Below the pieces are notes generated by a model. That model was not told the DNA's origin. It made no database searches and worked only from the letters and a program-made list of their open reading frames with translations. A stretch of DNA of 64,000 nucleotides from an uncultured delta proteobacterium (GTDB lineage Bacteria; Myxococcota_A; Polyangia; Polyangiales; Polyangiaceae): the NCBI GenBank assembly GCA_963841435.1, contig CAWJCS010000003.1, forward strand, positions 864,001-928,000, in the 5' to 3' direction. The position numbers and the translations under genes were made by a program. Every line of letters begins with the position of its first letter. The stretch's first letter is position 1. This document shows, in pieces, positions 16,577 to 49,779 of the stretch.

Positions 16577-16616
16577 AACGACTTCAGGGCCCGTCGGTCG
16601 CGCCGTAGCGCGCCGG

Positions 16617-19655: not shown

Positions 19656-19670
19656 GCGAAGGAGAACGGC

Positions 19671-20348
19671 GTGGCGACGAAGAAGGTACTGGTCGTGGGC
19701 CTCGGGCGCTTCGGTGGCGCGCTCGCGGACGAGTTGTGGGACACCGGCAGCGAGCTCATCATCGTGGACAAGGATCCCGACGCCATCGACGCCTACAAGT
19801 CGAAGGCGAGCGCCGCGTTCGTGGCCAACGTCAACGACCCCGGCGTGCTGGAGAGCGTCGGCGCGCGGGACGTCAACGTCGCCGTCGTCACGGCGGGCGA
19901 GGACTTCGAGGCCACGGTGCTCGCCGTTGCGCAGCTTTCGCAGCTCGGCGTAAAGACGATCTTCGCCCGCGCCGTGAACGACCGGCAGGCCCACGTGCTG
20001 CGCGCCGTGGGGGCGACGCGCGCCGTGCAGGTCGAGGACGAAATGGGGCGGCGCCTCGCCGTCCAGGTGCTGAACCCCTCGGCGGCCCACCTGATGGACT
20101 ACGCCACGCACTTTCGCGTCGTGCCCTGGGTGGCGGCCCCGCCGCACGTCGGCCGGACGCTCGCGGAGGCGCGGTTTCGTCGCTACGAGGTCAACGTGCT
20201 CGGTTACTTTCCCAAGGATTCGAAGCACGAGGGGCGACCACGCCTCCAGATGGCCGCGCCCGACTACCGCATCCGCGAGGGCGACACGCTCCTCATCGTG
20301 TGTGAGGAGGAAAAGCTCGAGCGCTTCCTCGCTTCCGTGGAAGGCTGA
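19671..20348 (+). CDS. ktrA: Trk/Ktr K+ uptake regulatory RCK subunit
   Basis: VVGLGRFG Rossmann motif and RCK_C. RBS AAGGAG. Follows ktrB. Confidence 0.92.
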   Translation: MATKKVLVVGLGRFGGALADELWDTGSELIIVDKDPDAIDAYKSKASAAFVANVNDPGVLESVGARDVNVAVVTAGEDFEATVLAVAQLSQLGVKTIFARAVNDRQAHVLRAVGATRAVQVEDEMGRRLAVQVLNPSAAHLMDYATHFRVVPWVAAPPHVGRTLAEARFRRYEVNVLGYFPKDSKHEGRPRLQMAAPDYRIREGDTLLIVCEEEKLERFLASVEG

Positions 20349-20383
20349 TCCGGCCCGAGCGGGCATGGTAGCCTCCTTGTCGC

Positions 20384-20821
20384 ATGCAAGCCGCGCACCT
20401 TCCACCCGAAGCGGAGGTGGAGGAAGTGTTCTTCGACGGCCGCCCCGCGTTGGTACCGAGCCTCGGCGTCGCGTTGCTCGTGATCCTGACGCTCGGCCTG
20501 TGGCTGATCCCCCAGTGGTGGGTGTCACGCGGCTGCCACTACCGGGTCACCTCGCGGCGTATCGTCGTCGAGACCGGCGTGCTGTCGAAACGACTCGAGC
20601 AGATCGATCTCTATCGTATCAACGACTACAGCGTGGAGCGACCCTTTTTCCAGCGCCTACTCGGTACCGGCAATCTGCTCCTCAAAGCGATGGACAAGAC
20701 CACCCCCGAGCTCAAGCTCGCGAACCTGAAGACCGACGTGGTGGCGCTGTACGAGCGCGTGAGGGAAGCAACGGAAATCGACAAGGCCAAGCGCAACACG
20801 CGGGTCGTCGACTACGAATGA
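20384..20821 (+). CDS. Bacterial PH (bPH_2) domain membrane protein
   Basis: YRVTSRRIVVETGVLSK..IDLYRI..RPFFQRLLGTG. Confidence 0.8.
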   Translation: MQAAHLPPEAEVEEVFFDGRPALVPSLGVALLVILTLGLWLIPQWWVSRGCHYRVTSRRIVVETGVLSKRLEQIDLYRINDYSVERPFFQRLLGTGNLLLKAMDKTTPELKLANLKTDVVALYERVREATEIDKAKRNTRVVDYE

Positions 20822-20890
20822 CTCACTCCGCTCCGAGGTCGAGCTCGCCGCAGGCGCTTTCGTCCTAAAGGCTGAGCCCGCCGAATGCGC

Positions 20891-33259: not shown

Positions 33260-34007
33260 CTAGCCCTTCAGCTGGTTGGCGACCGCTTTCGCGGCCTTCT
33301 CGGCGGCCTCCGGGTCACCGAGGTAGTAGCGCGGCTTGATGGGCTTCAGGTTCGCGTCGAGCTCGTAGACGAGCGGGATGCCGGTCGGGATGTTGAGCTC
33401 GACGATGTCGGCGTCGCTCACGCCGTCGAGGTGCTTGACGAGGGCGCGCAGGCTATTGCCGTGCGCCGCGATGACGACGCGCTCGCCCCGCTTCACGCGC
33501 GGCGCGATGTCGCTCTCCCAGAAGGGCAGGAAGCGCTCGACCGTGTCCTTCAGGCACTCCGTCTTCGGGATCTCGTTCTTGGCGAGACCCGCGTAGCGGC
33601 GGTCCTTGCCGGGCCAGTGCTCGTGCGACTCGTCGAGGGCGGGCGGCGGCACGTCGTAGGAGCGGCGCCAGAATCTTGACCTGCTCCTCACCGTGGCGCG
33701 CGACCGTCTCGGCCTTGTTGAGGCCCTGCAGCGCGCCGTACATGCGCTCGTTCACGCGCCAGGTGCGCTGCACGGGGATCCACATCAGATCGAGGTCTTC
33801 GAGCACGATCCAGAGCGTCTTGATGGCGCGCTTGAGCACGGAGGTGAAGGCGAAATCGAAGCTCAGCCCGGCCTCCTCGAGCAGCCGCGCCGCTTCGTGC
33901 GCTTCCTTCACCCCGAGCTCGCTCAGCGGGACGTCCACCCAGCCGGTGAAGCGGTTGTCGAGGTTCCACTGGCTCTGACCGTGTCGCAACAAAACGAGCT
34001 TGTGCAT
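33260..34007 (-). CDS. gpmA: 2,3-BPG-dependent phosphoglycerate mutase (one +1 frameshift at ~33672, likely sequencing error)
   Basis: [29 protein letters not shown] and AHGNSLRAL. Deleting one base restores [13 protein letters not shown] and a 248-aa product. Confidence 0.95.
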
Positions 34008-34203
34008 GGCGCTTCGTGTCCCCTTAGACGCGCGCCGGGGATGCTGCAAGCGGCGCGCAACAGGTCGCCGCCACCGAGCCGGCGCAGTCAGCTCGTTCGC
34101 CCGCGCTGCCGCCGACGAACCGGCACGTTTCGACGGCGCGGCATTTTCTTTTGATTGGGGCGACCGACGCGCGGCGGCGAAACGTGGACGCCGCACGTCG
34201 TTC

Positions 34204-34243
34204 CACCCGGACGCACCCGGACGCACCCGGACGCGCCCGAACG
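34204..34243. repeat. 10-bp tandem repeat CACCCGGACG x3 plus one degenerate copy, intergenic upstream of gpmA
   Basis: Read directly from the sequence. Confidence 0.8.
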
Positions 34244-34296
34244 CGTCTCCGTGTGGGACTCCGGCGCTCGTCCGCCGGTCCCCGGCAAGTGCGGGG

Positions 34297-34980
34297 CTAG
34301 CTCGAGAACGGGATGAACAGGCTCAGACCGCCCGTGGCCGTGATGTCGTTCACGATCTTGTCGACGCCGAGCTGCACGCGCTGCTGCGAGTGCACGATGT
34401 CGCGCGTGTCGAGCCGGAACGCGAGCCATTCGGTGAGGTAGAACTTGAAGCCGAAGCCGCCGGAGCCGCTCAGGCCGAGATCACCCGGCTCGACGGTCGC
34501 GCCGCCGCCGAGCGCGACGTAAAAATCGTAGCGACCGATGGCGCCGCCGAGCCAGCGGACCTTGCCGTAGGCGATCGACCAGACCAGATGCCCGAGGAAG
34601 AACTGGATGGGGTTCGAATCCGCCTGGACGATGTCGATGAGGCCCTGCTGCCGCTGCTCGATGGCCTCGAGCAGGGAGTACTTCTGACGGGCGCGGAGGT
34701 AGCTTGCCTCGAGGCCGAGATCCTCGGTGAAGTGGAAGGTGTAGGCGCCGCCGTAGGTGGGAGCGCCGTCGGAGATGTCGCCCGCGTACCAGCCGCCGAA
34801 CGCCGAGATCTCGTGGCGGAGGGCCTTCTTGATGAGGCGCGGCACGACGCCGCGGTACGCGCGCTGGCCGATGAGCTGCTGCTTGAGCGCTTCGTCGACG
34901 CACTGGGCGCGGGCCTTTGCGGGCACGAGCAGGGCGAAGGCGACGGCCAGCGCGCCGAGCCAGACACGGACCGGGGGCAT
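34297..34980 (-). CDS. Myxobacterial outer-membrane beta-barrel protein, GltA/GltB/NfsA-like
   Basis: Signal peptide ending [21 protein letters not shown] and DFY motifs; alternating beta strands. Confidence 0.7.
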
Positions 34981-35203
34981 GTTCAGCGCGCCCTCGACGG
35001 GGGGCAGAACAACGCGGAAGCGGGTGCAGCGGCGCCGGCGCTCAACTCGCCATAGGGAACTATCACACCTGACACCGGCACGAAAAGCGCAGTTTTTCGC
35101 GCGGCCCCGCTGCCGTCTCGGGCACGCCTCGCTGCGCGGCCGACGGCGGCGGGGCGCGCCTCTCACGCCCCGCGCTGCGCGGTCGGCGCTAGGCTCTGGT
35201 TCC

Positions 35204-36541
35204 ATGCGGATACCGCTGTCTCTCGCGGCGCTCCTTCTGTTCGTGACGACGCGCGTCGCGGCCGAGCCGGCCCGGGGGGCGGACGCCTGCGCCGGCCCGC
35301 TCCGCTCGACGCTCACCACCGTCGGCTGCCGGCTCGCTGCCGGTCTCGGCGAGCGAGCGCAGGGCGCGCTCGTCATCGGCGTCACCCCCACGGCCGACCC
35401 ACCGGTCGCCGTGCGCGCCGAGCTCGCGAGCCGCCTCGCGCGGCTGGTCGCGGGGTCGATCGGGAGCGGCGCCACCGCCTGGCCCGCCGTGCTCGGCGCG
35501 GCGCGCGCCAGAGCGCTCTCCGACGGCCGGCGCCCGCTCGTGGTCGTCACGGCGCGCCTGGGCGACGCGCGCCTCGAGGTCACGGCCGACGCGTTCGTCG
35601 GCCGTGACACGCTGTGGCGCCGCCTGCGACGCGGGCGCTCGGGGCCCGTTTCGCACGCGTTCGCGGAGGGCCCACTCGACGCCGAGCTCAAGACGTTCTT
35701 GCCGCCCGTGCCGCTCGTCGCTCGCGAGATCATCAAGGGTCAGGGCGCCGACGCCGACCTCGTGGCGGTCGCCTGTGGCGACCTCGACGGCGACGGATCG
35801 CCCGAAATCGCAGCGCTCGGGCGTCGCCGAGTGTCCGTTTTGCGACTACGCGGGGGTCGCGTCGAAACGGCGGCGGCGAGGCCGCTCACGGCGCTCGCGC
35901 CCGTCGCCGGCACGCCGCTCCGCGAGCCGATCGCCGCGGCGTGGATCCCCGCGAAAGGAGCGCTCGACCTCGGCGTGACCGATCGAGCGGCCGCGCTGCG
36001 CCTGGACGCGAAGCTCCAGAGCGTGACGCCGCTCGCCGGGCGGCTGCCGTGGCCGGGAGGAGGCTGTGCGAACGTCGCCGAGCTCGGCGTGGCGCCGAAG
36101 CTCGAGCCGTGCCGTCCGGGAGAGGCGGCGCCGGGCGGCGAGGCCCCGGGCGCCGGAGCGGGCGATGCGCTCGCGGGCGCGCGCGTGACGCGGCGTGACG
36201 GCTCGGTCGCCGTCGTGCGTGCCGTACGGCTGCTCGGCACGAGCACGGCGAGCATCCGCGACGGCGCGCGCACGCTCACGGTCGAGCCCGTGGGAGCCGA
36301 GCTCGCCGTCGGGGACCTCGACGGCGACGGCTCGGCGGAGCTCGTCGCGAGCCTGGACACGCAAAAGCGCGAGGAGGACGCCATCGTCGTCTACGGCTTC
36401 TCCGCCGACGGTCAGGCGAGCGAGCGCTTCCGTCTACCCGTGCCGAGCGGCGTGCGCGCCGTCGGCGTGTGTCCGCTGCGCTCGAGCGCGATGGCGCCGA
36501 TCGTGGTTGCCACGGGAGATGGCCTTTGGCTCGTGCGCTGA
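35204..36541 (+). CDS. Secreted protein with FG-GAP/VCBS-like Ca-binding repeats
   Basis: Signal peptide; GDLDGDGSPE and GDLDGDGSAE. Confidence 0.7.
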   Translation: MRIPLSLAALLLFVTTRVAAEPARGADACAGPLRSTLTTVGCRLAAGLGERAQGALVIGVTPTADPPVAVRAELASRLARLVAGSIGSGATAWPAVLGAARARALSDGRRPLVVVTARLGDARLEVTADAFVGRDTLWRRLRRGRSGPVSHAFAEGPLDAELKTFLPPVPLVAREIIKGQGADADLVAVACGDLDGDGSPEIAALGRRRVSVLRLRGGRVETAAARPLTALAPVAGTPLREPIAAAWIPAKGALDLGVTDRAAALRLDAKLQSVTPLAGRLPWPGGGCANVAELGVAPKLEPCRPGEAAPGGEAPGAGAGDALAGARVTRRDGSVAVVRAVRLLGTSTASIRDGARTLTVEPVGAELAVGDLDGDGSAELVASLDTQKREEDAIVVYGFSADGQASERFRLPVPSGVRAVGVCPLRSSAMAPIVVATGDGLWLVR

Positions 36542-37869
36542 GGCCGGGAGCGCCCGCGCGCGCAAGCCGCCGCGCCTTCGGAGCGCTCCTTCTGCTCGCG
36601 CCCGGCGCGAGCGCGCTCGGGCGGACGCCGCTCGGCGGCACGCTGCGACTGAGCGTGCCGTTTTCGACCCGCGAGCTCGATCCGCACGCGGGCGACAGCG
36701 CGATCGCGGCGTTGTTCGCGCCAGCCGTCGCCGATCCGCTGTTCGCGCTCGACGAGGAAGGGCGCCCCTACGCGGCGCTCGCCGAAGCGCTGCCCGAGCG
36801 CACCGCCGAGGGCGCGCGCCTCACGTTGCGCGCCGGGCTCGTGAGCGCACGCGGCAAGCGCCTCGACGCGCGCGACGTGGCCTTCTCGCTCGCCCGCGCC
36901 GCCCGCCTCGGCGGGGCCGCGACGCTCGGCGAGCTCCCGGCGCCGAGCCCCGATGCGCGCGACAGGCTCGCGCTCGTGTTTCCCGGCGCAGACCCGACGG
37001 CGGTCGCCGTCGCGCTCGCGAGCCCTCTCACCGCGCTCGTCCCGCGCGGCTTCTCCGCGGCTCGCCCCGACGGCACGGGCGCATTCCGGGCCACCGTGAC
37101 GGCGTCGGGACTGACGCTCGAGCGCAACGTCGTCGCGGCGCGCGGCCCGGCGTTCCTCGAACGCGTCGAGGTGACGCGCGCCGCCGGTCTCGCCGACGCG
37201 CTGCGCGCCTTCGAGTCGGCGCGGGCCGACGTGGGTTGGCTCGGAGCGGGCCTTCACCAGCCGCGGCGCGGCTCGGTGGCACTCGCCGGGCCGGACTACG
37301 GGCTGCTCGTGCTCCGCACCGGACGCGAGGCGCGCGCCTGGGCCGCGCCGGGCATCGCGCAGGGGCTCCTCGACCGCGTGCCGCCGGGCGCCCTCGCGCA
37401 CCTCGGCGTGCGAGACGTGGGCGGCACGCGACGCGCGGGCGCGCTGTGGGACGGCGGTGCCGCCGAGCTCGTCGTGGCATCCGACGAACCGATGCTCGGC
37501 GAGATTGCCGAGGCGCTCGCGGGCCTGCTCGCACCGCGCGCGGGGACGCTCGCCGCGCGCGGCGTCCCGCCGAGCGAGCTTGCCGCACGGCGAGCCACGG
37601 GCGCCTTCGCGCTCATGCTCGACTTCGTGCGCCTCGCCGGTCCGCCGGGGCGCGCAACCTTGCTCGCGCTGCTCGCCGCGACGAGCCCCGAACTCGCGCG
37701 CCGCCCGCCGCGCCCACCGTCTTACGAGCCACGCGACGTGGCACGCACTCTCCCGCTCGGCGTCGTGGGCGCCCTGCACGTCACGGGCGCGCGGGTGCCC
37801 GAGCTCGGCGGGCTCGAGCACTGGCAGCTCGGCAACGCCTATCTCACGCCGAATAGCGCACCGCCCTGA
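36526..37869 (+). CDS. Family-5 (Opp/Dpp-like) extracellular solute-binding protein homologue
   Basis: Twin-Arg-like SRRAF signal; GGTLRL..LDP, LA..P, LDARDVAFSL and GTGAF. TTG start with GGGAGA upstream. Confidence 0.65.
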   Translation: MARALRPGAPARASRRAFGALLLLAPGASALGRTPLGGTLRLSVPFSTRELDPHAGDSAIAALFAPAVADPLFALDEEGRPYAALAEALPERTAEGARLTLRAGLVSARGKRLDARDVAFSLARAARLGGAATLGELPAPSPDARDRLALVFPGADPTAVAVALASPLTALVPRGFSAARPDGTGAFRATVTASGLTLERNVVAARGPAFLERVEVTRAAGLADALRAFESARADVGWLGAGLHQPRRGSVALAGPDYGLLVLRTGREARAWAAPGIAQGLLDRVPPGALAHLGVRDVGGTRRAGALWDGGAAELVVASDEPMLGEIAEALAGLLAPRAGTLAARGVPPSELAARRATGAFALMLDFVRLAGPPGRATLLALLAATSPELARRPPRPPSYEPRDVARTLPLGVVGALHVTGARVPELGGLEHWQLGNAYLTPNSAPP

Positions 37870-37933
37870 CGTTGGCGGCGACGCGTCACGCGGCGCCGGG
37901 ACGACCGCGCTACGACCGCGGCACCGTTCGCCG

Positions 37934-38797
37934 TCAGCGGGCGGCGTCGAGCACGGCGCGGCCCGCCGCTTCGAAGTGGGCCTGTAAGACGGCGCCGGGG
38001 ACGGCCGCGTCGCGCCGCGCCGAGATGCTGCGGGCGGCGTCGAAGGCGGCGCCTTCGAGGCCGAGCGCCGTGTAGAGCGCGCCCTCGAGCTCGGCGAAGA
38101 GCGCTTCCTCGTCGGGGCCGAGCGGGCCGCACTCGGGGGCCGCCCGGCCGCGGTCGCGCGCGAGGCGGCGCCGCGCGGCCATCTTCAGCCGCATCTTGAG
38201 GACCGACAGCAGGTACACCGACGAGCCGTTCATGTCGGACGCGAGCCGGTCGCGGTCGGCGCGCCAGGCCGCGTCGAGGTCGAGCTCGGCCGCGCGCCAG
38301 GCGGGCGCCCCGGCGAGGCCCGCGAGCGCGGAGAAGTAGCCCACCTGCTCGGTGTGGTGCTCCTCGCTCGCGAACTTGTCGAGGTGACACAGGTCGTGGA
38401 TCAAGAATTCGAAGCCGTCACGCGGACCGTGCTCGACCGAGACGGGGAGCAGGCTCGCGCAGCGCGCACCGCGCGCCTGCAGCGCGAGCACGTGCGCCGC
38501 GGCGGGCACGTCGCGGCGAAGCTCGACGGAAAAGCCGCCCGACCAGCGAAACAGCGCCCGCACGGCGCGCTCGGGCACGCGGCAGAGCCGCCGTGTCGCG
38601 AGCAGCGAGAGCGCGGGCGACGGTGGCCCGCCGAGCGGCTCGCGCCGCGCGCCCTGATCAGCGCGGCGGCCGAGCGCCTGCGCGGCGCGCTCGACGAGGT
38701 ACGCGGCGGCGTGCTCGGCGTCGTTTTCGGGCGTGGAACGGCTCGGCCCGCCGGCGTCGACGCTGTCGAGCAGCGGTCGCCCCAAAAAACCAACCAT
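37934..38797 (-). CDS. Hypothetical protein with HDLCH motif
   Basis: Coherent ORF with GC3-biased codons; conserved-looking FLIHDLCHLDKF, EQVGYF and SDMN blocks. Confidence 0.6.
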   Translation of the reverse strand: MVGFLGRPLLDSVDAGGPSRSTPENDAEHAAAYLVERAAQALGRRADQGARREPLGGPPSPALSLLATRRLCRVPERAVRALFRWSGGFSVELRRDVPAAAHVLALQARGARCASLLPVSVEHGPRDGFEFLIHDLCHLDKFASEEHHTEQVGYFSALAGLAGAPAWRAAELDLDAAWRADRDRLASDMNGSSVYLLSVLKMRLKMAARRRLARDRGRAAPECGPLGPDEEALFAELEGALYTALGLEGAAFDAARSISARRDAAVPGAVLQAHFEAAGRAVLDAAR

Positions 38798-39598: not shown

Positions 39599-40326
39599 TT
39601 CCCCTTGACGTTCGGCGGCACGGCGACGGTCGCCTTCGCTTTCCAGTGGTCGACACTCGCCTTGACGCGGGCAAGCTGCCTGACGGCGCGGCGATTGGCC
39701 GGACCCGTCCCGAGGCCCCAGAGCCCCACGTCGAGCTCGACGCTCTCGCCGTTGCCGAGCGGCTTCATGCCGTGCTTGCCAGGCCATTCGCGTGAAAGCT
39801 TGACGGTGGTTCCGGCGCCGAGCGGCTGGTCGCCATCGCCCTCGCGCTCGTCCCCGAAGGACTCGGCGTCGCTCTTGCCCCCGCGCTTGACCGCACCGGC
39901 GAACGCGAGCGGTCCGTTCTTCGGAGCGAGCAGCGAGCGGTCCTCGCTCGCCGTGGCCGAGACGACGACGCGCACGCCGAAGCCCGCGGGCGTCCGCACC
40001 GTCTCGGCTTTGATCATGAAGCGCACGTCGTCGACCTCGGCCTTGAGCCCCTCGGGCATGAGCACGTAACGAACGGTGCGCTGGGCGTTCGGGTCGCGCG
40101 CCGGCGGTGCGGGCTCGTCCGGCTGATCGTCGGCGGGCACCGTGTCGTCGGTCCGAGCGGGATCGGAGCCGACGCTCTCCGCGGGCTCCAAAGGGGGCGG
40201 CTCGGGCGCGACGCTCGCGGGCGCTTCGGGGGCCGCGGCCGCTGGGGTTTCGGCGGCGCCGCCGCCGCAGGCGACGAGCGCCATCGCGAGGGGAGCGAGA
40301 AGGACGAGCGGAGCAATGACCCGCAT
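39595..40326 (-). CDS. Hypothetical lipoprotein
   Basis: Lipobox LVAC, Pro-rich linker and beta-rich domain; RBS GAGGGAG. Confidence 0.7.
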   Translation of the reverse strand: MRVIAPLVLLAPLAMALVACGGGAAETPAAAAPEAPASVAPEPPPLEPAESVGSDPARTDDTVPADDQPDEPAPPARDPNAQRTVRYVLMPEGLKAEVDDVRFMIKAETVRTPAGFGVRVVVSATASEDRSLLAPKNGPLAFAGAVKRGGKSDAESFGDEREGDGDQPLGAGTTVKLSREWPGKHGMKPLGNGESVELDVGLWGLGTGPANRRAVRQLARVKASVDHWKAKATVAVPPNVKGK

Positions 40327-40487
40327 CGCTCCCTCTTACCCTGGAAAATGCACGGCTTGAAAGGCCCTTGCCTCGACCGCCCGAGCCGGCGGGGCCCTCG
40401 GGCGCGCGAGCACGCGAACGACGCGTCGCGCCACGGCCGAAAAGTACCATCGCCACGTCACACACGCGAGGCTACGCTTCGCGCCAA

Positions 40488-41834
40488 ATGACCGGCGGAG
40501 AGCGCGAATCCGGGACCCCGCCGAGCGGAGCCGCACCCCACGGTGCACCGCGCTTCCAGAAGATCCGCCGCATGAACCGGGGGGGCATCGGTTGCATCGA
40601 CGTAGCCAGGGACCCGGTGATCGGGCGCCGCGTCGCCATCAAGGTGTTGCGCTCGGAGCTCGAGGGCAACGATGCCGCCGCGCTCAAGTTCGCCGAGGAG
40701 GCGCAGATCACGGGTCAGCTCGAGCACCCGAACATCGTGCCCATCTACGATCTCGGGTACGACGAGCGCGGTCCGTACATCGTGATGAAGCTCATCCGCG
40801 GGCTCAGCCTCGCGGAAGCGATTGCCGACGTGCGCGGCCGCGAGCGCCCCGAGCGGCTGCAGGAGCTCGTCGAGGTCGTGCTCAAGCTGTGCGATGCGCT
40901 CGCGTTCGCCCACAGCCGCGGCGTGATTCACTGCGACGTTAAGCCCGAGAACGTGATGGTGGGGGATTTCGGCCAGGTTTACCTGATGGATTGGGGGGTG
41001 GCGCTCGTCGCCTCGGGACGCGAGGGCTCCCCGAGCCAACGCGGCACGCTGCCGCCCCCCGCTTCGCCGCAAAAGGAGCCCTGCGATGCCGCCGAGCACG
41101 ACTCGTTCGTGCACATCGACATGTCCGCCGTCTCGAGCAGCAAGGTGTGGGGCACGCCGGCCTACATGGCGCCCGAGCAAGTGTCGGCCAGGAGCGAAGC
41201 CATCGACGAGCGCACCGACGTCTTCGGCATCGGCGGCATCCTGCACGAGATCCTCACGGGCCGACCGCCCAACGACTGGCAGAAGCTGATCGGGCCGGGG
41301 CTCAACCACCCGCTCGAATCGTTGCCCGACAAGAGCGACCTCTGGCCGCGCCTGCCACCGGAGCTCTGCCGCATCGCACTTAGGGCGCTCTCGCCGAAGA
41401 GCGAGGACCGCTACCCCACGATCCCCGCGCTCAAGGCCGATCTCGAGCAGTTCTTGCGCGGCGGGGGCTGGTTCGAGACCCAGACCTTCCCGCCCGGTGC
41501 CCTCGTGATTTCCGAAGGAGCGCCCGGCGACGCCGCGTACATCATCGAGAGCGGGCACGCCGACGTGTTCAAGCACATGAACGGCGAGCGCACCTTCGTG
41601 CGCCGTCTCGGCCCGGGGGAGGTCTTCGGTGAAACGGCCGTGCTCACGGGCGGCGCGCGCACCGCGACCGTCGTCGCAGTTGACGCGCTGAGGCTCAAGG
41701 TGATCACGGGTGAGTCGCTGAACCGGGAGCTCGATCTGAACCCATGGCTCGCGGCGTTCGTGCGCTCGCTCGCGAGGCTATTTAGCGAGACGGACCAGCG
41801 TCTGTCACGACCGGAGGGGCTCGGTCGCACGTAG
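40488..41834 (+). CDS. Ser/Thr protein kinase with C-terminal cyclic-nucleotide-binding domain
   Basis: VAIK, HCDVKPEN, DWG and GTPAYMAPE; CNB domain EGAPGDAAYIIESG..GEVFGETA..RTATV. Confidence 0.9.
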   Translation: MTGGERESGTPPSGAAPHGAPRFQKIRRMNRGGIGCIDVARDPVIGRRVAIKVLRSELEGNDAAALKFAEEAQITGQLEHPNIVPIYDLGYDERGPYIVMKLIRGLSLAEAIADVRGRERPERLQELVEVVLKLCDALAFAHSRGVIHCDVKPENVMVGDFGQVYLMDWGVALVASGREGSPSQRGTLPPPASPQKEPCDAAEHDSFVHIDMSAVSSSKVWGTPAYMAPEQVSARSEAIDERTDVFGIGGILHEILTGRPPNDWQKLIGPGLNHPLESLPDKSDLWPRLPPELCRIALRALSPKSEDRYPTIPALKADLEQFLRGGGWFETQTFPPGALVISEGAPGDAAYIIESGHADVFKHMNGERTFVRRLGPGEVFGETAVLTGGARTATVVAVDALRLKVITGESLNRELDLNPWLAAFVRSLARLFSETDQRLSRPEGLGRT

Positions 41835-41885
41835 GGGGCGGAGGTCGGTAGCGAGAGAAAAAACCAGCAGCGAGAGGGAGACGCC

Positions 41886-44800
41886 ATGACGGTCACGACA
41901 AGCAGCAAGAGCCTTCGTACGTTGACGGAGCTGACGCTCCTCGCGGACATCAAGCCGGGCTTCGTGCCCGTGCCCGACCTCATGTCTTACGCGACGCGCC
42001 TCGGCGCGCTGCTCAAGGCCCTGTTCGGGCTCAGGCGGCAGAGCATCGAGGCGGAGCCGTCCGGCTACGTGGGACCGCTCGAGCGCTTGCAATCGCTGCA
42101 CTTCGTGCGCTGGTCGATCCTCGAGGGGAAGAAGCTCTTGCTCGGCGTGAGCTTCGACCGCGCCTGGGAGCCTTACATTCGCGGCATCGTTGACGAAGCG
42201 GGGCCGTTTCTCGACGTGATCTTTTGCCATACCAAGGACTACGACGGGCACGCGACGAGCGACGGCTACGCGAAGTTCTCCCAGTGGGTGCGCGCGCATC
42301 AGGTTGACGTGCCGTTCTTCTACGCCGGCAATCCCGGCCTCACCGTCGACGACGAACGCTTTCTCGCCGAGTACGAGCGGCGCGTGCGCGCCGGCGACGA
42401 CGCGACGGACCTGGTGCTCCCCGAGCCCGGCGCCGAGGCACCGAAGCAAGAAGCCCCGGACATCGCCCAACGTCGCCTCCGGCGCGCGACGCGGGCGCTC
42501 GCGCTGATTCGCGAGTTTTTCCCGCCCGGGCGAGACCAGGACTTCTTCGACCACGCGGTGTTTTCGCTGCTCGAGGGCCTGGTCCCGCGCTCGGCCGGCG
42601 AGAGCATCGACGACGCGCTGAAGGCGCTCGCCGCCGCCGCGCCCGACATAGCCCAGCCGCTCGCAGCGATGCGCCAAAAAGTTCCCGGAGCGGCGCTGCT
42701 CGAGGACGACGAGGAGGCCGACGATCTGTCCGACGATCTCCAGGGTAACGTGCGCACGGGCTACCGTGGCATGACCCATGGCTGCCTCGCGCTCTTGCGC
42801 TGCGACGGCCGAAAGGCGGCGCGGAAGCTGCTCGCTCGCCTCGTCGCTCACGTGACGACCGACGCGTGCGCGAACGAAGCCAAGGAGGCCGTCAACGTGG
42901 CGCTGACGCGGGACGGCCTGCGCACGCTCGGCGTGAGCGAGGCCGAGCTCGCCGTCTTCCCCGCCGAGTTTCTCGAAGGCATGGAGGCGCGCGCCGGGCT
43001 GCTCGGCGACGTTGAGGCCGAGCATCCGTCGCGCTGGCAGCTGCCGAGGTTCGACGGCGATCCGGTGCCCCTGTCGAGCGTCGACGCAGTGCTCTCCGTG
43101 CAGGCGTCGCCCGCGAAGGTCGGGCCGAACGACCACGTGTTCGGCGCCGAGCATCCACTCGCGCCGCGGCTCGCCGCGCTGCTCGAGGGCCTCGAGGGGG
43201 TGAGCGTGCTGCACGTCGAGCCGCTCCTCAGGCGGCCACAACCTCCAACCGAGCCCTTCGTGCGCGAGCACTTCGGCTTCGTCGACGGCATCAGCCAACC
43301 GGTTCCCCGGGCGCGGCGCGCGGACGCACCGCCGTCCCGCGACGAGGTCGCGCTCGGCGAGGTCGTGCTCGGGTATCAGGACGATCACGGAGAGCGCCCT
43401 CCGGGAAGCGACGGCGGGCTGCTCAGGCACGGCAGCTTTCTCGTCGTGCGCAAGCTCGTGCAGGACGTGAGGGCGTTCCACGCGTTCGTGGCCACGTCCG
43501 GCATCCCCGCCGAGCGGCTCTACGGCGCGCTCATGGGACGCAAGCGCGACGGCGCGCCCCTCGTGGGACGCGGGGCGAAGGGAGACAACGATTTCGACTA
43601 CTCGGAAGCCGAGGCGAACCAGAAGTGCCCGGTCGCTTCGCACGTGCGCCGCACGAACCCGCGCACGCCCGATCGCCTGTCCGTGCACGGCCGGCCCATG
43701 CGCACGCCGCGCATCGTGCGGCGCGGCTTCTCGTTCGGCCCGATCGACCCCGAGATCGAAGCCCCCCGCGGCCTCGTGTTCATGGCCTACAACGCGAGCA
43801 TCGCGAATCAGTTCGAGGTGCTGCAGCGCTGGATCAACGGCGGCAACAGCACGGGCGACCTCAGCAGCCACTCCGACCCCGTCGTGAGCCACGCGCACCC
43901 GCGCGTCGTCACCGTGCCCCACGACGGCAAGCACGTTCGGCTCCAGAAAACGAAGCCGTTCGTCACGCTCGCGTGGGGCATGTACCTCTTTTCGCCATCG
44001 CGGAGCGCGCTCAGCGAGCTCGCCGCGCGCGACGAGACGCGCGACCGAGAGCTCGCGCGGGTCGACGAAGACGAGCTGGCCGCGCGGGGACACGAGATCA
44101 TCACCAAGCTCGAGCTCGCTCACGCCGTGCTCGGCGAAACCGCTGCGCGGGCAGAGTGGAAGCTCGTGCTCGAGGATCGCGGCGCGCGCGAGCAGGGGCG
44201 GGCCGTGTGGGCGGCGATCCGCCGGCGGGGCGGCGCGCTCCGCACTCCGTACGGCGTGCTCGTGGGGAGCGCCGACGCGGTGCTCGACGTGCTCGCCGAC
44301 GACGGGCGCTGCTCGGTGCGCGGCTACTACGAACGCATGGAGGCCTCCGTCGGGCCGCTCTACCTCGGTATGGACCGCTGCCCGGTCGCGCACGAGGGTG
44401 CGGGCTCGCAAGCCGACCAGCATTACGAGCGCGTGGTCCAGCCGGGAACCTACGACGCGTCGGCCGAGGCTCCCAATCGCTTCATGCGCGGCCTCACGCG
44501 CGAAGACGCCTTCTCGGCCACCCGGCAGGCGGCGCTGCTCACGCTCGCGGGGCTCGCGACGCTGAGCCCGCTCGTTGACCTTCGCTACTACGCCGCGGGA
44601 ACGGCGCGCCGCGTGTCGGAGGCTTGGTTCGGCCTGCCCAACGCGGATGAGCAGTTTCGGGAGATCTTCTCGGTCGCGGCGCAGAGCATTTTCGATCCCC
44701 ACCCGGAGCCCGTGGTGCTCGCCGAAGCGGAGAAGGCTCGCGAGAAGCTCCGCACCGCGGAGGAGAAGCTGCTCGAGACGAACCCGCCCATGCTCGCCGC

Positions 44801-45359
44801 CCTGCCCGGTTTCGACGACGAAGAGAAGAAGCGGGCGCTCGTCGGGGGCGCGCAGGGTTTCCTCGTGGCGACCGTCGCAAGCTTCGTGGGCGTCGCCGCC
44901 GACTGGCTCGAGAGCGGACGCGCCGCGCGGCTCTCGCAATGGCTGCGCACCGCGGCCCCCCGCGGGCTCACCGATCCGCACCAGAAGCCGTCGGCTGCCG
45001 ACCTCGAGGACTGCGTCTGGCTCGTGCGCGAGCTTTACGACGCGCTTCGGCGCCACCCGCAGCCGGACATCCTGTACAGAAAGGCCGTCGTCCCGAAGAG
45101 CGTGGCGGACGGTGCCGTGTTCGTCGCGCCGGGCGACACGCTGGTCGTCAGCCTGGCCTCGGCTGCGGCGGAGCGCCCGGAATCGATCGACATCCTGTTC
45201 GGCGGGGCCGATCCACGCCGCGCGGACGACCCGCATCCGCTCCACTACTGCCCAGGCAAGGAAGCGGCCATCGGCGTCATGCTCGCGCTCGCCGTGACGC
45301 TGCTCCAAGAGCACGAGCTCAGGCTCGAGGTGCCGCTGTCGATCTCGTTCAAGGCGTGA
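41886..45359 (+). CDS. Multidomain hemoprotein: unknown N-terminal domain + DyP-type peroxidase + atypical cytochrome P450 domain
   Basis: DyP: EHFGFVDGISQP, GSFLVVRKL, HVRRTNPR, RIVRRG, GLVFMAYNASIANQFE. P450: DALRRHP (ExxR-like) and FGG..HYCPG Cys ligand. RBS GAGGGAG. Confidence 0.85.
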   Translation: MTVTTSSKSLRTLTELTLLADIKPGFVPVPDLMSYATRLGALLKALFGLRRQSIEAEPSGYVGPLERLQSLHFVRWSILEGKKLLLGVSFDRAWEPYIRGIVDEAGPFLDVIFCHTKDYDGHATSDGYAKFSQWVRAHQVDVPFFYAGNPGLTVDDERFLAEYERRVRAGDDATDLVLPEPGAEAPKQEAPDIAQRRLRRATRALALIREFFPPGRDQDFFDHAVFSLLEGLVPRSAGESIDDALKALAAAAPDIAQPLAAMRQKVPGAALLEDDEEADDLSDDLQGNVRTGYRGMTHGCLALLRCDGRKAARKLLARLVAHVTTDACANEAKEAVNVALTRDGLRTLGVSEAELAVFPAEFLEGMEARAGLLGDVEAEHPSRWQLPRFDGDPVPLSSVDAVLSVQASPAKVGPNDHVFGAEHPLAPRLAALLEGLEGVSVLHVEPLLRRPQPPTEPFVREHFGFVDGISQPVPRARRADAPPSRDEVALGEVVLGYQDDHGERPPGSDGGLLRHGSFLVVRKLVQDVRAFHAFVATSGIPAERLYGALMGRKRDGAPLVGRGAKGDNDFDYSEAEANQKCPVASHVRRTNPRTPDRLSVHGRPMRTPRIVRRGFSFGPIDPEIEAPRGLVFMAYNASIANQFEVLQRWINGGNSTGDLSSHSDPVVSHAHPRVVTVPHDGKHVRLQKTKPFVTLAWGMYLFSPSRSALSELAARDETRDRELARVDEDELAARGHEIITKLELAHAVLGETAARAEWKLVLEDRGAREQGRAVWAAIRRRGGALRTPYGVLVGSADAVLDVLADDGRCSVRGYYERMEASVGPLYLGMDRCPVAHEGAGSQADQHYERVVQPGTYDASAEAPNRFMRGLTREDAFSATRQAALLTLAGLATLSPLVDLRYYAAGTARRVSEAWFGLPNADEQFREIFSVAAQSIFDPHPEPVVLAEAEKAREKLRTAEEKLLETNPPMLAALPGFDDEEKKRALVGGAQGFLVATVASFVGVAADWLESGRAARLSQWLRTAAPRGLTDPHQKPSAADLEDCVWLVRELYDALRRHPQPDILYRKAVVPKSVADGAVFVAPGDTLVVSLASAAAERPESIDILFGGADPRRADDPHPLHYCPGKEAAIGVMLALAVTLLQEHELRLEVPLSISFKA

Positions 45360-48300
45360 GGCAACGCTTGGCGCGCGCGGCGAACGCGTGCATCCCGAGC
45401 TCGCGGAACGCCTCGGGCAGCGTGCCCGCGAGGTCGCGCGCCTCCTTGGCGTCCTTTTCGCCGTGGAGCAGCTCGGCCCGCGTGAGCTGCGTCAGCAGGA
45501 GCTCTCGCCGCGACTCGTGGGAGGCCGCGACCTCTTCGGCCCGATTCGAGCTCCGATTTCGCGCGCTCGATGTCCCTTTCTCGCGCGGCAAGCCGCGCAC
45601 GCACACGGTACGCCGGCACCTCGCCCAGGCGGTCGCCCGCCTCGGCACGCTCGAGCGCCCGGCCCGCGGCCCGCGCAGCCCCCTCGTCGTCGCCCGCGGC
45701 GAAAAGCGCCTCGGCGAGGCAAGCGCACCAGAACGACAGAAACAGGCGCATCCCGCGCTCGTCGAGCCAGGACACCACGCGGCCGAGCTCACCGAGCGCC
45801 GCCGGATCGGCACCGAGCATCGCTCGCGCGAACGAGCCGAGCGCCTCGCTCGTCGCGAACACGTAGGGCCCGCTCATCCGCTCGGCGCGCAGACGGCTCA
45901 CGCTCGCGGTCTGCACGCAGTCGCCGTAACGCCCCTGCCAGACCTCTATCATACCACGGAGCCCCATCAGCGAGGCCTCGACGGCGTGCTCGGCGCCCCG
46001 CACGGCCCTGAGCGCGGTCTCCATCGTGGCAGCGCTCTCTTGAAAATCTCCCTGGTAGCCCTGCACGAGCGCCTCGACGCCGAGGGCGTACGCGAAACCC
46101 ACGGGCACGGCGCGCAAGAAGTGAGTCTTCACCTGCGTGCGCTTGAGCTCGAGGGCGCGCTCGAGCATGGCGAGAGCTTGCGTGCACTCCGCGGATGCCG
46201 CGTGCACGTGTCCTAGATTGGCGAGGAGTTGCGCCACGAGCTTGAAGCTGCCCGTGTGCTCGGCGATGGCGAGCGCGGCACGCGCGTGGGACGAGGCGGA
46301 CTTGGCATCCCCGAGCGCGTAGTGGATCCAGCTCAGCCAGTAGTGGCTGCGCGCGATCGCCTCGGGATCGTCCAGCTTGACGGCGAACTCGAGCGCCCGC
46401 TCGAGCAGCCCCACCTGCTCGGGCGCGGGGCTGAACACGCACGCCGCCGCCCATTTCCAGGCAATCTCGAGCCAGCGTCGGCGCGTGGGCGCCGACGTTG
46501 AAATGCGGTCGAGCTCGAGCATGGCGGCGCCGTATTGCTGGCGCGCGCAGTCGAGCGACGACGCCGCTGCCGCCTTGTCGCCCGCGAGCTCCGCGTACAT
46601 GCTGGCGCGCTCGGGCTCGGCGGCGCCCGCCCAATGCGCGGCGAGCGCCTCGCTCCGTTCGAGCGCGCCGCTCTCGCCGAAACAGTCTTCGATGGCGCGT
46701 GCGATGGCACCGTGCAAGCGGCGGCGCTCACCGAGCTTCACGGAATTGTACACCACCTCACGCGTGATGCCGTGCTTGAAGCGGTAGAGTCCCGAGCTAT
46801 AGCCGGCGTAAACGAGGTCGTTCTCGGCGAGCGAATCGAGCGCCTGGGCCAGACCGTCGGGGCCGACGATGCGCGAGAGCAGCCATTCCTCGAACTCGCT
46901 GCCGATCACGGCGGCCGCCTGCGAGACCAGTGAAAGCGCCGGGGGCAAGCGCTGAACGCGAGCCTGGATGAGACCGTGAATCGTGCTCGGCACGCTCTTT
47001 TCGCGACCGAGGTCGAGCTCCACGCCGTCGCGCGACAGCGCCTGGCAGAGCTCTTCCAAGAAGAGGGCATTGCCGCCCGCGCGCTCCTTCATGGCGCCCG
47101 TGGTCTCGAGATCGAGCGCCGTGGGCATGAGCGCCCGCATCATGGCGTCCACCTCGTCCGTGTCGAACGGCATCAGCTCGATGAAGCCGCTCTCGCCGGA
47201 GACCGGCGCCATCACCTTCCCGGTACGCGCGCACGTCACCACGAGCACGCGCCGGGCCTCGCGCGACAGGCCCGCCACGAGATCGGCGAGCAGCTGCCGT
47301 GAGGCGTCGTCCGCCCACTGCCAGTCGTCGAGCGTCAGAACGACGGGGCCGCGCTCGGAGAGGGCGGTGATCCATTGCACGAACGCGTTCGAGAGCGACC
47401 CGTCCTCGGACTCTTGCTTCACGGGCGCGCCGAGCGACAGCGCCTGCAACAACGCTGGCAGTTGACGCAAGAGGCGGCGATCGAGGGCAGCGAGCTCTGC
47501 TTCCACGCGGCGCGCCGACGCTTCGCGAGGCGTATCGGCCTTGAGCCCGAACGCCTGGCGGAGGATCTGCAAGAACGGTTGCAGCGGCGCGATGTTGCCG
47601 TAGCTCTCGCAGTGCCCGGCGAACGTCCGGAGCTCGGGTTGCTCGAGCCGGCGCCGAAACTCCTCGAGCAGCCGCGTTTTGCCGACGCCCGCGTCGCCGC
47701 GCACCTCGAGCACCCGGACCTTGCCCGACAGCACGGCCGCGAGCGCACCGTCGAGCGCAGCGATCTCGCGCGAGCGGCCGATGAACGTCGTGAGCCCACG
47801 CCGGGCGCGCGCCTCGAAGCGCGTCGCGACGCCCGTGCGCCCGAGCACGCGATACACGGGCACGGGCTTGCCCTTGCCCTTCAAGCGCAAAGGCTCGACG
47901 GCCCGCGTCTCGAAGAACGGCTCCACGCCGCCGAGCGCGCTCTCGCTCGCGAGGATCTCGTCGTTCCCCGCCGCCGCGCAGAGACGCGCCGCCGTGTTGA
48001 CCGGGTCGCCGACGAGCTCGTAGCGGCCCTCCGCGGGGTCGGCTTCGCGCGCGTACACGAGGCCCGCGTGGATGCCCGTGTGCAATCGCGCGATGAAGCC
48101 CGGCGGCAGATCGACGTTCGAGCTTTAGCTCGCGGATGGCGGCGTGCAGCTCGAGCGCGGCCTCCGCGGCCCTTCGCACGTCGTCCTCGCCAGGGGTCGG
48201 CAGGCCGAAGACGGCGAGGAGGCCGTCGCCGTAGAATTGATTGAGCGTGCCGCCGTGCTTCTCGATGATGCCCTTGGCGAGCGCTTTCGTGCGATGAAGC

Positions 48301-48434
48301 AGCAACGCCACGAGCTCGGGATCGCTCTCCTCGTTGAGCGCCGTGTAGTCGCAGAGATCCGAAAAAAGCAGGCCGACGTGGCACCGCCGCTCGACCGAGA
48401 CGGGCCCGTCCGACCTTTTGCCACCTCGTGTCAT
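45349..48434 (-). CDS. Class III nucleotide cyclase - AAA/STAND ATPase - TPR protein (two +1 frameshifts at ~48117 and ~45545, likely sequencing errors)
   Basis: LFSDLCDYT, NQFYGDG and GDPVNTAARL; FIGR, GDAGVGKTRL, LDDWQWAD, GGNALFLEEL and FKHG; C-terminal TPRs. Removing two bases gives one ~1027-aa frame. Confidence 0.88.
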
Positions 48435-48600
48435 CGCCGGACCGGATCCTAGAGCGCCTGCAGGCGACGTGGGAGGCCGCCCTTTTCCCCACGCGTCCGG
48501 AGTTTGCCGCTGGGCGCTCCGAGCGCGCAAAAAAGGCGTGATGCCGGCCGTAACGGGCGGCGACGGCGGGGAGGTGGGGCCCGGGAGGGGCCCGGCGGCG

Positions 48601-49779
48601 TCAGGAGCGGCGAGCCGCCTCGTGCTCGATGCGGGCGGCCTCGAGCAGCCCTGGAGATTCGAGCAGGTCCGCAGCCGTCCTGGCCATGGCCTTGGCGGCG
48701 ACCAGCATCGTTTCGTAGCCGCGCGCGCTGTCGGCACACGCGGCGAAGGCGCGCTCGTGGCAAAGCGCGTGACCCTCGTCGCAAATCGCGAGCCAAGGGT
48801 GAATCGCGGGGACGGCGAGGCTCACGTCGCCCATGTCGGTGGACGCCGAGCCCACGCTGGGATCCGTTTCACGCGGCTTACGCCCCAGCACCTCGAGGGC
48901 CGCACCGAAGCGCCGCGCCATGGCCATGTTGTTGAGCATGCCGCTGTAACCGACCTCGCGCTGGACGCGCACCTCGACATCGGAGGCGAGCGCTGCCGCG
49001 CGCGCGCAGCGCTCGACGAGATCGGCGACGGGACCCACCCCTTCGGTGGTGGGCGCGCGAACCGTGAACTCGCACGCCGCGTCCTCCACGATGATGTTCG
49101 GCGCCTGGCCCCCGTTCGTGACGATGCCGTAGATCCTCACGCCGTCTCGCAGATGAACGCGCTGAGAATCCACGAGCCGGAAGGTGTCGAGGCAGGCCGT
49201 GAGAGCGCTCTTGCCGTCCCAGGGTGCGAAGGCGGCGTGCGCGGGGACGCCATGGAACGCGACCTGCACGCGCAGCGTCGCGAGAGCCGGGTGCGCGAGC
49301 ACGTCGCGGTCGAACGGGTGAAACATCATGGCCGCATCGACGCCCTCGAACACGCCCGCTTCGATGAGCCGGATCTTACCGCCGCCGCCCTCCTCGGCGG
49401 GCGTGCCCACGAGCTCGATCGCGCCGGGCAGGGAGGCCCCGTGGCGCGCGAGCGCGAGGAACGCCCCCACGGCCGCGCCGGCGATGAGATTGTGCCCGCA
49501 GGCGTGCCCGATCTCCGGCAGCGCGTCGTACTCGGCGAGGACGGCCACGCGCGGCCCCTCGGCGGCGCCCGCCCGCGCGCGAAAGGCGGTGGCGAGCCCG
49601 CCGAGACCGCGCTCGACGACGACGCCGGCCACGCCCTCCACCATCTCGGAAATCCAGGAGCTCGCCTGCCGCTCCTCGAACGAGAGCTCGGGGTGATGGT
49701 GGATCTGGCGCGAAAGCTCGGTCAGCCGTTCCCCGAGCTCGTCAACGGCGCGATCGATGGCAGCGCGATCGAGCGGCAT
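48601..49779 (-). CDS. M20 family amidohydrolase (PM20D2/AbgB-like)
   Basis: HPELSFEE, AEYDALP..GHACGHNLI, GTPAEEGGGGK and STDMGDVS. Confidence 0.9.
   Translation of the reverse strand: MPLDRAAIDRAVDELGERLTELSRQIHHHPELSFEERQASSWISEMVEGVAGVVVERGLGGLATAFRARAGAAEGPRVAVLAEYDALPEIGHACGHNLIAGAAVGAFLALARHGASLPGAIELVGTPAEEGGGGKIRLIEAGVFEGVDAAMMFHPFDRDVLAHPALATLRVQVAFHGVPAHAAFAPWDGKSALTACLDTFRLVDSQRVHLRDGVRIYGIVTNGGQAPNIIVEDAACEFTVRAPTTEGVGPVADLVERCARAAALASDVEVRVQREVGYSGMLNNMAMARRFGAALEVLGRKPRETDPSVGSASTDMGDVSLAVPAIHPWLAICDEGHALCHERAFAACADSARGYETMLVAAKAMARTAADLLESPGLLEAARIEHEAARRS

Follow-up and report, generated by a model that had tools for sequence, protein, structure and literature searches.

A conserved gene pair for a DyP-P450 hemoprotein and a class III cyclase-STAND-TPR protein as a possible cyclic-nucleotide-controlled module in Polyangiaceae and other bacteria

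Introduction

What does an enzyme with two predicted heme sites do beside a nucleotide cyclase and a cyclic-nucleotide-binding (CNB) kinase, and in which direction would a signal pass between them? The question is raised by three adjacent genes in a stretch of 64,000 nucleotides (hereafter, the window; positions 864,001 to 928,000 of contig CAWJCS010000003.1) from an uncultured bacterium of the Polyangiaceae. The G+C content was ~70% across this 64-kb window, and at 40.3-48.8 kb three coding regions were conspicuous by their length and third-position G+C (GC3). They encode a Ser/Thr kinase with a C-terminal CNB domain (40488..41834, plus strand; kinase-CNB), a hemoprotein of 1157 amino acid residues with an N-terminal domain (N-domain), a dye-decolorizing peroxidase (DyP) domain and a cytochrome P450-like domain (41886..45359, plus strand), and a class III nucleotide cyclase joined to an AAA_16 (STAND P-loop) domain and TPR (45349..48434, minus strand; cyclase-AAA-TPR). 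An earlier note, made from the sequence alone, had read the three genes as a self-contained circuit in which the hemoprotein makes or removes an oxidized lipid or peroxide, the cyclase senses it, and the kinase reads the resulting cyclic nucleotide (cNMP). Open reading frames (ORFs) and translations confirmed the three genes at their positions, the 51-bp gap between the co-oriented kinase-CNB and hemoprotein genes and the 11-bp convergent overlap between the hemoprotein and cyclase genes; overall, this observation was partly confirmed and its interpretation partly supported. Here, we show that the hemoprotein and cyclase genes form a two-gene core that recurs across phyla, and the best explanation, to which we assign a probability of about 0.55, is a cNMP-controlled module with a lineage-specific reader, which possibly oxidizes lipids.

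Conservation of the hemoprotein and cyclase genes

A sequence search with the hemoprotein retrieved 119 other family proteins (741-1628 amino acids), mostly aligned nearly end to end, the closest of which (P0002-P0008; 56-59% identity) were derived from metagenomes. A scan of a genome collection gave at least 616 pattern matches, of which 592 were relatives, and the best 80 of the 592 were fetched with their flanks for locus comparisons (L001-L080). ORFs were called in these loci and then clustered, and tblastn was used as a second count. A cyclase-AAA-TPR gene lay beside the hemoprotein gene in 65 of the 80 loci by ORF clustering and in 66 by tblastn, and the next most frequent neighbor cluster was found in 14 loci only. 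The cyclase gene was downstream and convergent in 62 of the 65 loci and upstream in the remaining 3. Among the convergent pairs, 26 overlapped, 23 were separated by 0-100 bp, 3 by 101-400 bp and 10 by more than 400 bp (52 pairs within 400 bp). The cyclase gene was missing from 15 of the 80 loci, and the flanks were truncated in 10 of these 15.

The 80 loci were from Burkholderiales, Sphingomonadales, Bradyrhizobium and other Alphaproteobacteria, Pseudomonadales, Polyangiales/Myxococcales and Vicinamibacterales; cultured, non-pathogenic carriers included Sphingomonas changbaiensis, Bradyrhizobium manausense, B. agreste, and strains of Pelomonas, Paucibacter and Roseateles. The conserved unit is the pair of DyP-P450 and cyclase-STAND-TPR genes, which recurs above chance as a two-gene core across phyla. 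The co-occurrence expected from the earlier circuit was therefore found for the hemoprotein and cyclase genes, but not for the kinase-CNB gene, of which a full-length homolog was present in only 1 of the 80 related loci (L012, from a metagenome-assembled genome of the Myxococcales).

Several other genes were observed around the pair. A 416-residue protein is encoded next to the 5' terminus of the cyclase gene in L054 (7753..9003, minus strand) and in 8 further loci of the Burkholderiales; it belongs to no Pfam or NCBIfam family and has an FD..GFS motif, and an Atlas search pointed weakly to proteins with a cyclase domain (score of 0.91, 143 shared features). Small proteins of ~90-130 residues are encoded on the flanks of the pair at 10 and 5 Burkholderiales loci (two clusters; for example, L031 9505..9786 and L039 18020..18373, both minus strand), and have a hydrophobic N-terminus and a repeated LPRVV(I/V)xG sequence, with no family. 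In L050, a 7.5-kb insertion (13705..21289) with matches to the defense models NsnA/PD-T4-2_A and mad2 separates the hemoprotein and cyclase genes.

Domain structure of the hemoprotein

An AlphaFold2 model of the hemoprotein and a profile for comparison with the PDB were both built on 91 family sequences. The model had a predicted local distance difference test (pLDDT) score of 93.5 and a predicted template-modeling (pTM) score of 0.92. Profile and fold both upheld the DyP-P450 fusion described in the earlier note, which had not mentioned a further N-domain of 285 residues without a known family. This N-domain (approximately residues 1-285; 41886..42740, plus strand) contains a conserved FD..WE.Y motif, and R38, F90, Y97 and D156 are invariant in the family alignment; no Pfam match was obtained for it, and an Atlas search returned unnamed clusters only. 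No signal peptide was seen at the N-terminus by eye, no predictor having been used.

The second domain (approximately residues 286-714; 42741..44027, plus strand) is a DyP-type peroxidase of the long C/D type. The 91-member profile matched full-length long DyPs in the PDB, namely 8re3 (E = 3.6e-77), DyP2 (4g2c) and AnaPX (5c2i), and a Foldseek search with the whole model also retrieved DyPs (8re3: E = 1.9e-23, target TM score of 0.79), indicating that the predicted structure contains the DyP superfamily fold of two ferredoxin-like α+β barrels. Among the 91 sequences, D467 in FGFVDGISQP was nearly invariant, while H586, R612 and R613 were invariant, and the motifs of all these residues aligned with the corresponding motifs of 8re3. 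The single Pfam match of the hemoprotein was Dyp_perox_C (31.7 bits; cut-off of 20), and the NCBIfam model TIGR01413 was just under its cut-off (96.1 and 100.5 bits, respectively). The fold, distal Asp (GxxDG), distal Arg and proximal His are thus common to this domain and the long DyPs of Deinococcus radiodurans (8re3), Amycolatopsis (4g2c) and Anabaena (5c2i), whereas the domain studied here is the middle part of a 1157-residue fusion, and their identity is 22-30%.

The third domain (residues 715-1157; 44028..45359, plus strand) is a divergent P450-fold domain, which was assigned by fold and profile. When modeled separately (pLDDT of 94.9), it retrieved exclusively P450s among the Foldseek matches listed (TM scores of 0.51-0.63), including CYP184A1 (7wzl; E = 1.5e-10), CYP51, CYP97C1 and P450BioI, with alignments of ~415-480 columns and 12-18% identity. 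The 91-member profile gave weak but repeated matches to P450 chains over the stretch between helix K and the Cys loop (7qan, E = 2.5e-6), and a match to CYP51 over ~210 positions (E = 8.5e-4). Since the Pfam p450 model (PF00067) did not detect this domain, and a single-sequence phmmer search of the PDB gave just a weak match to CYP97C1 (E = 0.33), profile and fold searches were needed for its identification. The predicted Cys heme ligand (C1122) and H1120 are invariant in the family alignment, forming an HxCPG motif. On the other hand, the spacing from the conserved Phe to Cys in the Cys loop is 11-33 residues among the 91 homologs, helix I has no acid-alcohol pair, and the ExxR position is a degenerate DALR in this protein and is not conserved in the family. 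According to PMC5764023, the conserved P450 motifs are FxxGxRxCxG, ExxR and AGxD/ET. The modeled domain has the P450 fold and the Cys ligand, but not the canonical FxxGxRxCxG spacing, ExxR or AGxD/ET. Among 1.84 billion sequences, 518 representatives of the P450-like domain were found at E ≤0.001, and most of the 150 listed were 1130-1620 residues in length with the domain at the corresponding position, suggesting that it is nearly always fused.

These results suggested that the hemoprotein is a two-heme enzyme in which the N-domain is followed by a full DyP and then by a highly diverged P450. The last domain resembles CYP74 enzymes (allene oxide synthase and hydroperoxide lyase), which need neither O2 nor NADPH and have a nine-residue insertion in the heme loop together with the loss of AGxD/ET (PMC5764023). 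Although an insertion in the Cys loop and the loss of AGxD/ET are common to both, the length of the insertion is variable in the present family (11-33 residues from Phe to Cys) and no sequence kinship was detectable: CYP74 was absent from the listed sequence and fold matches. The resemblance is, as judged from the sequences, one of features, not of kinship. Fungal DOX-CYP (linoleate diol synthases/Ppo; PMC13049297) also combines a peroxidase-type heme domain with a self-sufficient P450 in one chain, and the logic proposed below for the present protein, in which a fatty-acid hydroperoxide would be made and then rearranged, is that of the fungal enzymes. Unlike in these, the first heme domain of the present protein is a DyP with ferredoxin-like barrels, not a cyclooxygenase-like animal-heme peroxidase; the protein also has an extra N-domain and a bacterial host.

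The partnership between DyP and P450 was also found in other arrangements. Plasmid pSM-3 of Skermanella mucosa (L081 4262..8669) carries a split version of the fusion: the N-domain, DyP and P450 are encoded by three genes that overlap one another and keep the domain order. The first gene encodes a protein of 558 residues with two copies of the N-domain motif (BLASTP, E = 3e-7 and 0.003), and the second and third encode a DyP-like protein and an annotated P450; the trio is flanked by toxin-antitoxin genes, and the annotation of the 6-kb flanks contains no cyclase. In P0120, a P450 and a DyP are fused in a different domain order. The split operon and this fusion both indicate that DyP and P450 are recurring partners. 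A search of 72,556 plasmid records gave 61 matches, none of which covered ≥80% of the hemoprotein, and carriage on plasmids was rejected on this basis. The literature searched, in which subscription journals were poorly covered, contained no description of a DyP-P450 fusion or of a DyP/cyclase pairing.

Cyclase gene and its frame changes

The cyclase gene starts with ATG at 48434 and its final frame stops at 45349, within the overlap with the hemoprotein gene. Pfam identified AAA_16 (E = 1e-27) and TPR_12 (E = 2.5e-10), and the translation contains a Walker A motif (GDAGVGKT), so that the deduced protein has the architecture of a STAND NTPase with a putative TPR sensor. The domains, strand and ends were those described previously, but the gene is not one open frame, two frame changes having been missed: it is read in three frames. 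The Guanylate_cyc profile is split between ORF 46797..48737 (profile positions 3-96) and ORF 45245..48085 (positions 103-176), the latter also containing AAA_16 and TPR. When compared by blastx with the intact orthologs of L001, L002, L009 and L012, the first change (48109..48117, minus strand) was located inside the catalytic domain, where frame 2 continues to 48117 and frame 3 starts from 48109; no homopolymer run is found at this site. Since the two frames adjoin without missing residues, one small indel inside the catalytic domain is indicated. The second change (45536..45550, minus strand) falls toward the C-terminus of the TPR region and coincides with a short run of G, where a switch of the GC3 frame was found; similarity to the orthologs in the second frame ends at 45530-45566, and the tail in the third frame (...ASHESRRELLLTQL...AFRELGMHAF...) matches the C-termini of the orthologs and stops at 45349. 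The orthologs are single ORFs (median of 1026 residues) with Guanylate_cyc in one frame.

A gpmA-like phosphoglycerate mutase gene of the window (33263..34322, minus strand) is also split, at ...EEQVKI | WRRSYD...; positions 1 to ~90 of the His_Phos_1 profile and positions 94-173 are encoded in different frames. It brings the frame changes of the window to three and calls for caution as to the quality of the assembly; the other genes covered by Pfam are intact. The frameshift in the gpmA-like gene, together with the source contig being 1.55 Mb in length, favors indels of assembly, whereas two of the three clear frame changes being in the cyclase gene, with the other Pfam-covered genes intact, argues against them. 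Either the sensor has been lost in this genome, which would possibly interrupt the circuit, or the assembly contains indel errors. At 36000..38000 of the window, where the G+C content is 77.6%, overlapping ORFs on the same strand (34757..36541, with FG-GAP repeats, and 36469..37869) possibly represent another frame change.

The two metal-binding Asp, the transition-state Asn and the Arg were conserved in 60 cyclase orthologs and retained in the pieces of the window gene; the family keeps the catalytic residues of class III cyclases, and activity is predicted from them. The pair of substrate-specifying residues is Arg (Gln in the window) and Glu. Since the canonical pairs are Lys/Asp for adenylyl and Glu/Cys for guanylyl cyclases, the product cannot be predicted from the Arg/Gln and Glu pair. 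Substrate selection in Rv0386-type cyclases of mycobacteria was reportedly addressed by Castro et al. in 2005. To our knowledge, the input signals of STAND-type cyclases in bacteria are mostly unknown. Rv0386-type proteins similarly have a class III head on a STAND-like ATPase (PMC3938503). Non-canonical substrate-specifying residues are also common to both; the present proteins differ in having TPR, not helix-turn-helix (HTH), at the C-terminus, the Arg/Gln and Glu pair, and the hemoprotein gene as a partner. No LuxR-type HTH was found at the C-terminus of the window pieces or of the L001 and L002 orthologs. The cyclase-AAA-TPR protein also aligned with positions 390-1210 of TIGR03903, the TOMM kinase/cyclase fusion (E = 3.8e-65), but its score of 220.5 bits is far under the cut-off (705.75); the match begins after the kinase of the model, which is not fused in the present protein, and no TOMM genes were seen. 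The presence of a Ser/Thr kinase on the same chain in TIGR03903 indicates that a kinase and a cyclase-STAND protein are linked elsewhere too.

Kinase gene, cyclic-nucleotide readers and CRP boxes

The kinase-CNB ORF (40368..41834, plus strand) opens at a TTG at 40368 and contains an in-frame ATG at 40488, the likely start codon. Its identity was as previously assigned: Pfam detected Pkinase (E = 1.6e-32; residues 64-227 and a second stretch) and cNMP_binding (E = 2.9e-19; residues 372-455), both above the cut-off. The translation contains the Lys of VAIK, a catalytic loop with HCD (without Arg before Asp), DWG and APE, as well as a phosphate-binding cassette of the CNB domain (FGE...ARTA). The deduced protein has the motifs of Hanks-type Ser/Thr kinases and CNB domains, and regulation by cNMP is predicted. 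In L012, the kinase-CNB gene is located 3 kb upstream of the hemoprotein gene on the opposite strand, and is divergent from a gene for a GAF-sigma-54 activator. This pair (L012 5331..8475) is a possible kinase-to-activator route in the Myxococcales. A literature search on kinase-CNB proteins of myxobacteria found nothing relevant, a scan of 40000..48900 for promoters and terminators gave nothing informative, and an Rfam scan of the window detected zero families.

A second STAND-type protein is encoded at 4127..6805 (plus strand) of the window. It consists of 893 residues with a Ser/Thr kinase, AAA_16 and TPR, and its chassis is the same as in the cyclase protein but with a kinase as the head. 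A tRNA-Val (cac) reported by ARAGORN at 4654..4741 (minus strand) is inside this coding region on the opposite strand and is probably a false positive.

When CNB readers were sought with a CNB-domain hidden Markov model among ORFs within 10 kb, they were found in 22 of the 80 loci and in the window, usually immediately next to the 5' terminus of the cyclase gene or a short distance upstream of that for the hemoprotein. The expectation of a cNMP reader beside the pair thus held in part: the usual reader was a Crp-type regulator (CNB and HTH), which accounted for the 14-locus cluster described above, and not a kinase. The other readers were the kinase-CNB of L012, an ABC-transporter-CNB protein in L021 and a CNB-NTE-patatin protein in L080. 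The last (L080 13656..17747, plus strand; 1364 residues with CNB, an NTE P-loop and patatin) starts ~1.3 kb past the hemoprotein gene and is a candidate cyclic-nucleotide-binding phospholipase. CNB readers are recruited lineage by lineage.

CRP boxes (TGTGA-N6-TCACA, with ≤2 mismatches) were searched for within 250 bp upstream of the hemoprotein gene, and 21 of 75 loci contained one (3.5 expected): 11 of 19 loci with a Crp neighbor (0.8 expected) and 10 of 56 others (2.7 expected). Four were perfect palindromes, and most sites were located at -90 to -126. The regions preceding the cyclase genes showed no excess (4 of 56 loci; 4.5 expected), and an FNR-type box (TTGAT-N4-ATCAA) was not clearly enriched. 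The enrichment at the hemoprotein gene and not at the cyclase gene suggested that the hemoprotein is the controlled output. This is the sole evidence on the direction of flow, which would most likely be from cyclase to cNMP, reader and hemoprotein, opposite to the order proposed in the earlier note, in which a hemoprotein product acts on the TPR cyclase and then on the kinase. The reader in the window, if it is one, is kinase-CNB. The combination of a cyclase with a CNB-domain reader is common to cAMP-CRP regulons and Pycsar, and the CRP-type box upstream of the target gene is likewise found here; the present loci differ in having a dedicated local STAND cyclase and readers that vary by lineage and, in comparison with Pycsar, in the absence of transmembrane or TIR effectors and of a defense context.

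Association with lipases

A GDSL/SGNH domain was found as a C-terminal extension of the hemoprotein in 10 of the 80 loci and in 15 of 120 family proteins (by Pfam for a subset and by BLASTP for the rest), and a patatin was fused at the N-terminus in 3 of the 120. A patatin-like gene was adjacent in 4 loci, its Pfam score being slightly under the cut-off, and the CNB-NTE-patatin gene of L080 is a further neighbor of this kind. These fusions and neighbors, together with the CYP74-like features, are consistent with a lipid as the substrate. The link to oxidized lipids suggested in the earlier note therefore gained comparative support, but the hemoprotein appears to be an output, not the source of the signal.

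Discussion

The two-gene module, our preferred reading, would operate as follows. The hemoprotein would be a cytoplasmic enzyme with two predicted heme sites, and its P450 has hallmarks of hydroperoxide-rearranging P450s that need neither O2 nor a reductase (the long Cys-loop insertion and the lack of an acid-alcohol pair). The second gene, convergent with the first and in most cases abutting it, encodes a class III cyclase with a STAND ATPase and a TPR sensor, in which a ligand acting at the TPR/ATPase switch may cause oligomerization and, as a consequence, dimerization of the cyclase heads and formation of a cyclic nucleotide. This nucleotide would be read by a CNB protein encoded nearby: in Alphaproteobacteria, Acidobacteriota and others, a Crp-type regulator with a box ~100 bp upstream of the hemoprotein gene, and, in the window and in L012, which is likewise myxobacterial, the kinase-CNB protein. 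The hemoprotein would be the controlled output. Its likeliest substrates may be fatty acids or fatty-acid hydroperoxides, which would be released by GDSL or patatin lipases such as those joined to the hemoprotein or encoded beside it in other lineages; the DyP heme would perform peroxide or radical chemistry, and the P450 heme would rearrange the product.

Several observations weigh against this reading. The cyclase gene is absent from five loci with ample flanks (L021, L025, L033, L041 and L069), the convergent genes are not one transcript, and the cyclase ORF of the window is interrupted twice. As to chemistry, most members, including the window copy, have no lipase domain, the top structural matches of the P450 are ordinary monooxygenases, not CYP74, and its ExxR is degenerate; furthermore, we know of no DyP that produces fatty-acid hydroperoxides, and the hemoprotein family itself is known from sequences and predicted structures. 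As to control, the numbers of CRP boxes expected were derived from mononucleotide shuffles, the boxes could belong to a global CRP instead of the local cyclase, the search for CRP boxes in the window found none preceding any of the three genes (kinase, hemoprotein and cyclase), and most loci of Burkholderiales have neither a nearby CNB gene nor a CRP box.

The direction of flow bears directly on the circuit that the earlier note had proposed. The conserved hemoprotein/cyclase pair, the co-oriented kinase-CNB gene 51 bp upstream and the nearby kinase-CNB gene in L012 are all in accordance with it, and the TPR sensors of STAND proteins bind ligands. A class III cyclase, Rv2212, is reported to be activated by unsaturated fatty acids (PMC3938503). 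However, kinase-CNB is found in just one of the 80 other loci, no observation ties the TPR to a product of the hemoprotein, the hemoprotein gene, judging from its CRP boxes, acts downstream of a cNMP reader, and the cyclase gene of the window is frameshifted. We regard this circuit as doubtful, although it could coexist with the two-gene module as a feedback from product to sensor. A state in which the module has decayed in this genome, with the cyclase gene a true pseudogene and kinase-CNB an unrelated neighbor serving other cyclases, is a real if lesser possibility. Two frame changes within one 3.1-kb gene, the first not at a homopolymer, would be explained in this manner, as would the lack of conservation of kinase-CNB with the pair; myxobacterial genomes carry many kinases, and another kinase-AAA_16-TPR gene is present at 4127..6805. 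Decay is opposed by the frameshift in the gpmA-like gene, which, on a contig of 1.55 Mb, points to indels of assembly, by the high GC3 and all catalytic residues kept in each frame of the interrupted gene, and by the repeated association with kinase-CNB in L012.

The hemoprotein may alternatively be a stress or catabolic enzyme under cAMP-CRP, for the detoxification of peroxide or the oxidation of aromatic compounds or xenobiotics, with a generic cyclase as a neighbor and no signaling lipid. DyPs are broad-range peroxidases, and the nearest solved structures are dye-decolorizing; control of the catabolite type would suit the CRP boxes, an msrAB gene and short-chain dehydrogenase/reductase genes are located near the pair in L002 and L001, and the majority of members lack a lipase domain. 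This explanation appears rather unlikely, because convergent pairing across phyla (within 400 bp in 52 of the 80 loci) is not expected for a generic cyclase neighbor, and because the recurrent lipase fusions, the CNB-patatin neighbor in L080 and a P450 without an O2-activation motif are left unaccounted for. A function in anti-phage defense or abortive infection, in which a STAND sensor similar to Avs, bearing a cyclase as its head, would produce cNMP for effectors and the hemoprotein, with or without a lipase, would damage membranes, is very improbable. The STAND-TPR architecture would be appropriate, PycC matched the L002 cyclase domain weakly (best E = 9e-13), CNB matches of PycTIR were obtained for Crp-like proteins, and patatin effectors are known in cyclic-nucleotide defense systems. 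PADLOC models, however, matched neither the hemoprotein nor the cyclase ORF of the window, the matches among the immediate neighbors sampled (145 of 250) were generic (RecQ, Crp CNB, GlgB and one sigma-54 activator), with the exception of the L050 insertion, the readers are mostly transcription factors, and no full-length copy was found in the 72,556 plasmid records, phage and viral collections not having been searched. The defense-system reading was rejected on the negative PADLOC results for the core proteins and the generic nature of the sampled neighbors.

A more specific form of the module is a widespread bacterial oxylipin-cNMP circuit, in which a lipase frees an unsaturated fatty acid, the DyP heme converts it to a hydroperoxide by radical chemistry, the CYP74-like P450 heme converts this to a signaling lipid, and the TPR of the STAND cyclase binds the lipid or its precursor. 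We consider this form speculative and improbable. If it were true, lipid and cNMP messengers would cross-regulate each other via CNB readers of the Crp, kinase or patatin type, and the system would be a bacterial counterpart of eicosanoid and jasmonate signaling built from different parts. The DyP-P450 protein is present in at least 592 species genomes and has no described function in the literature searched, with its poor coverage of subscription journals. A STAND-type cyclase is its near-obligatory partner, and the pairing offers a concrete candidate output for such a cyclase as well as a candidate lipoxygenase-free route of bacteria to oxidized lipids, analogous to that of fungal DOX-CYP.

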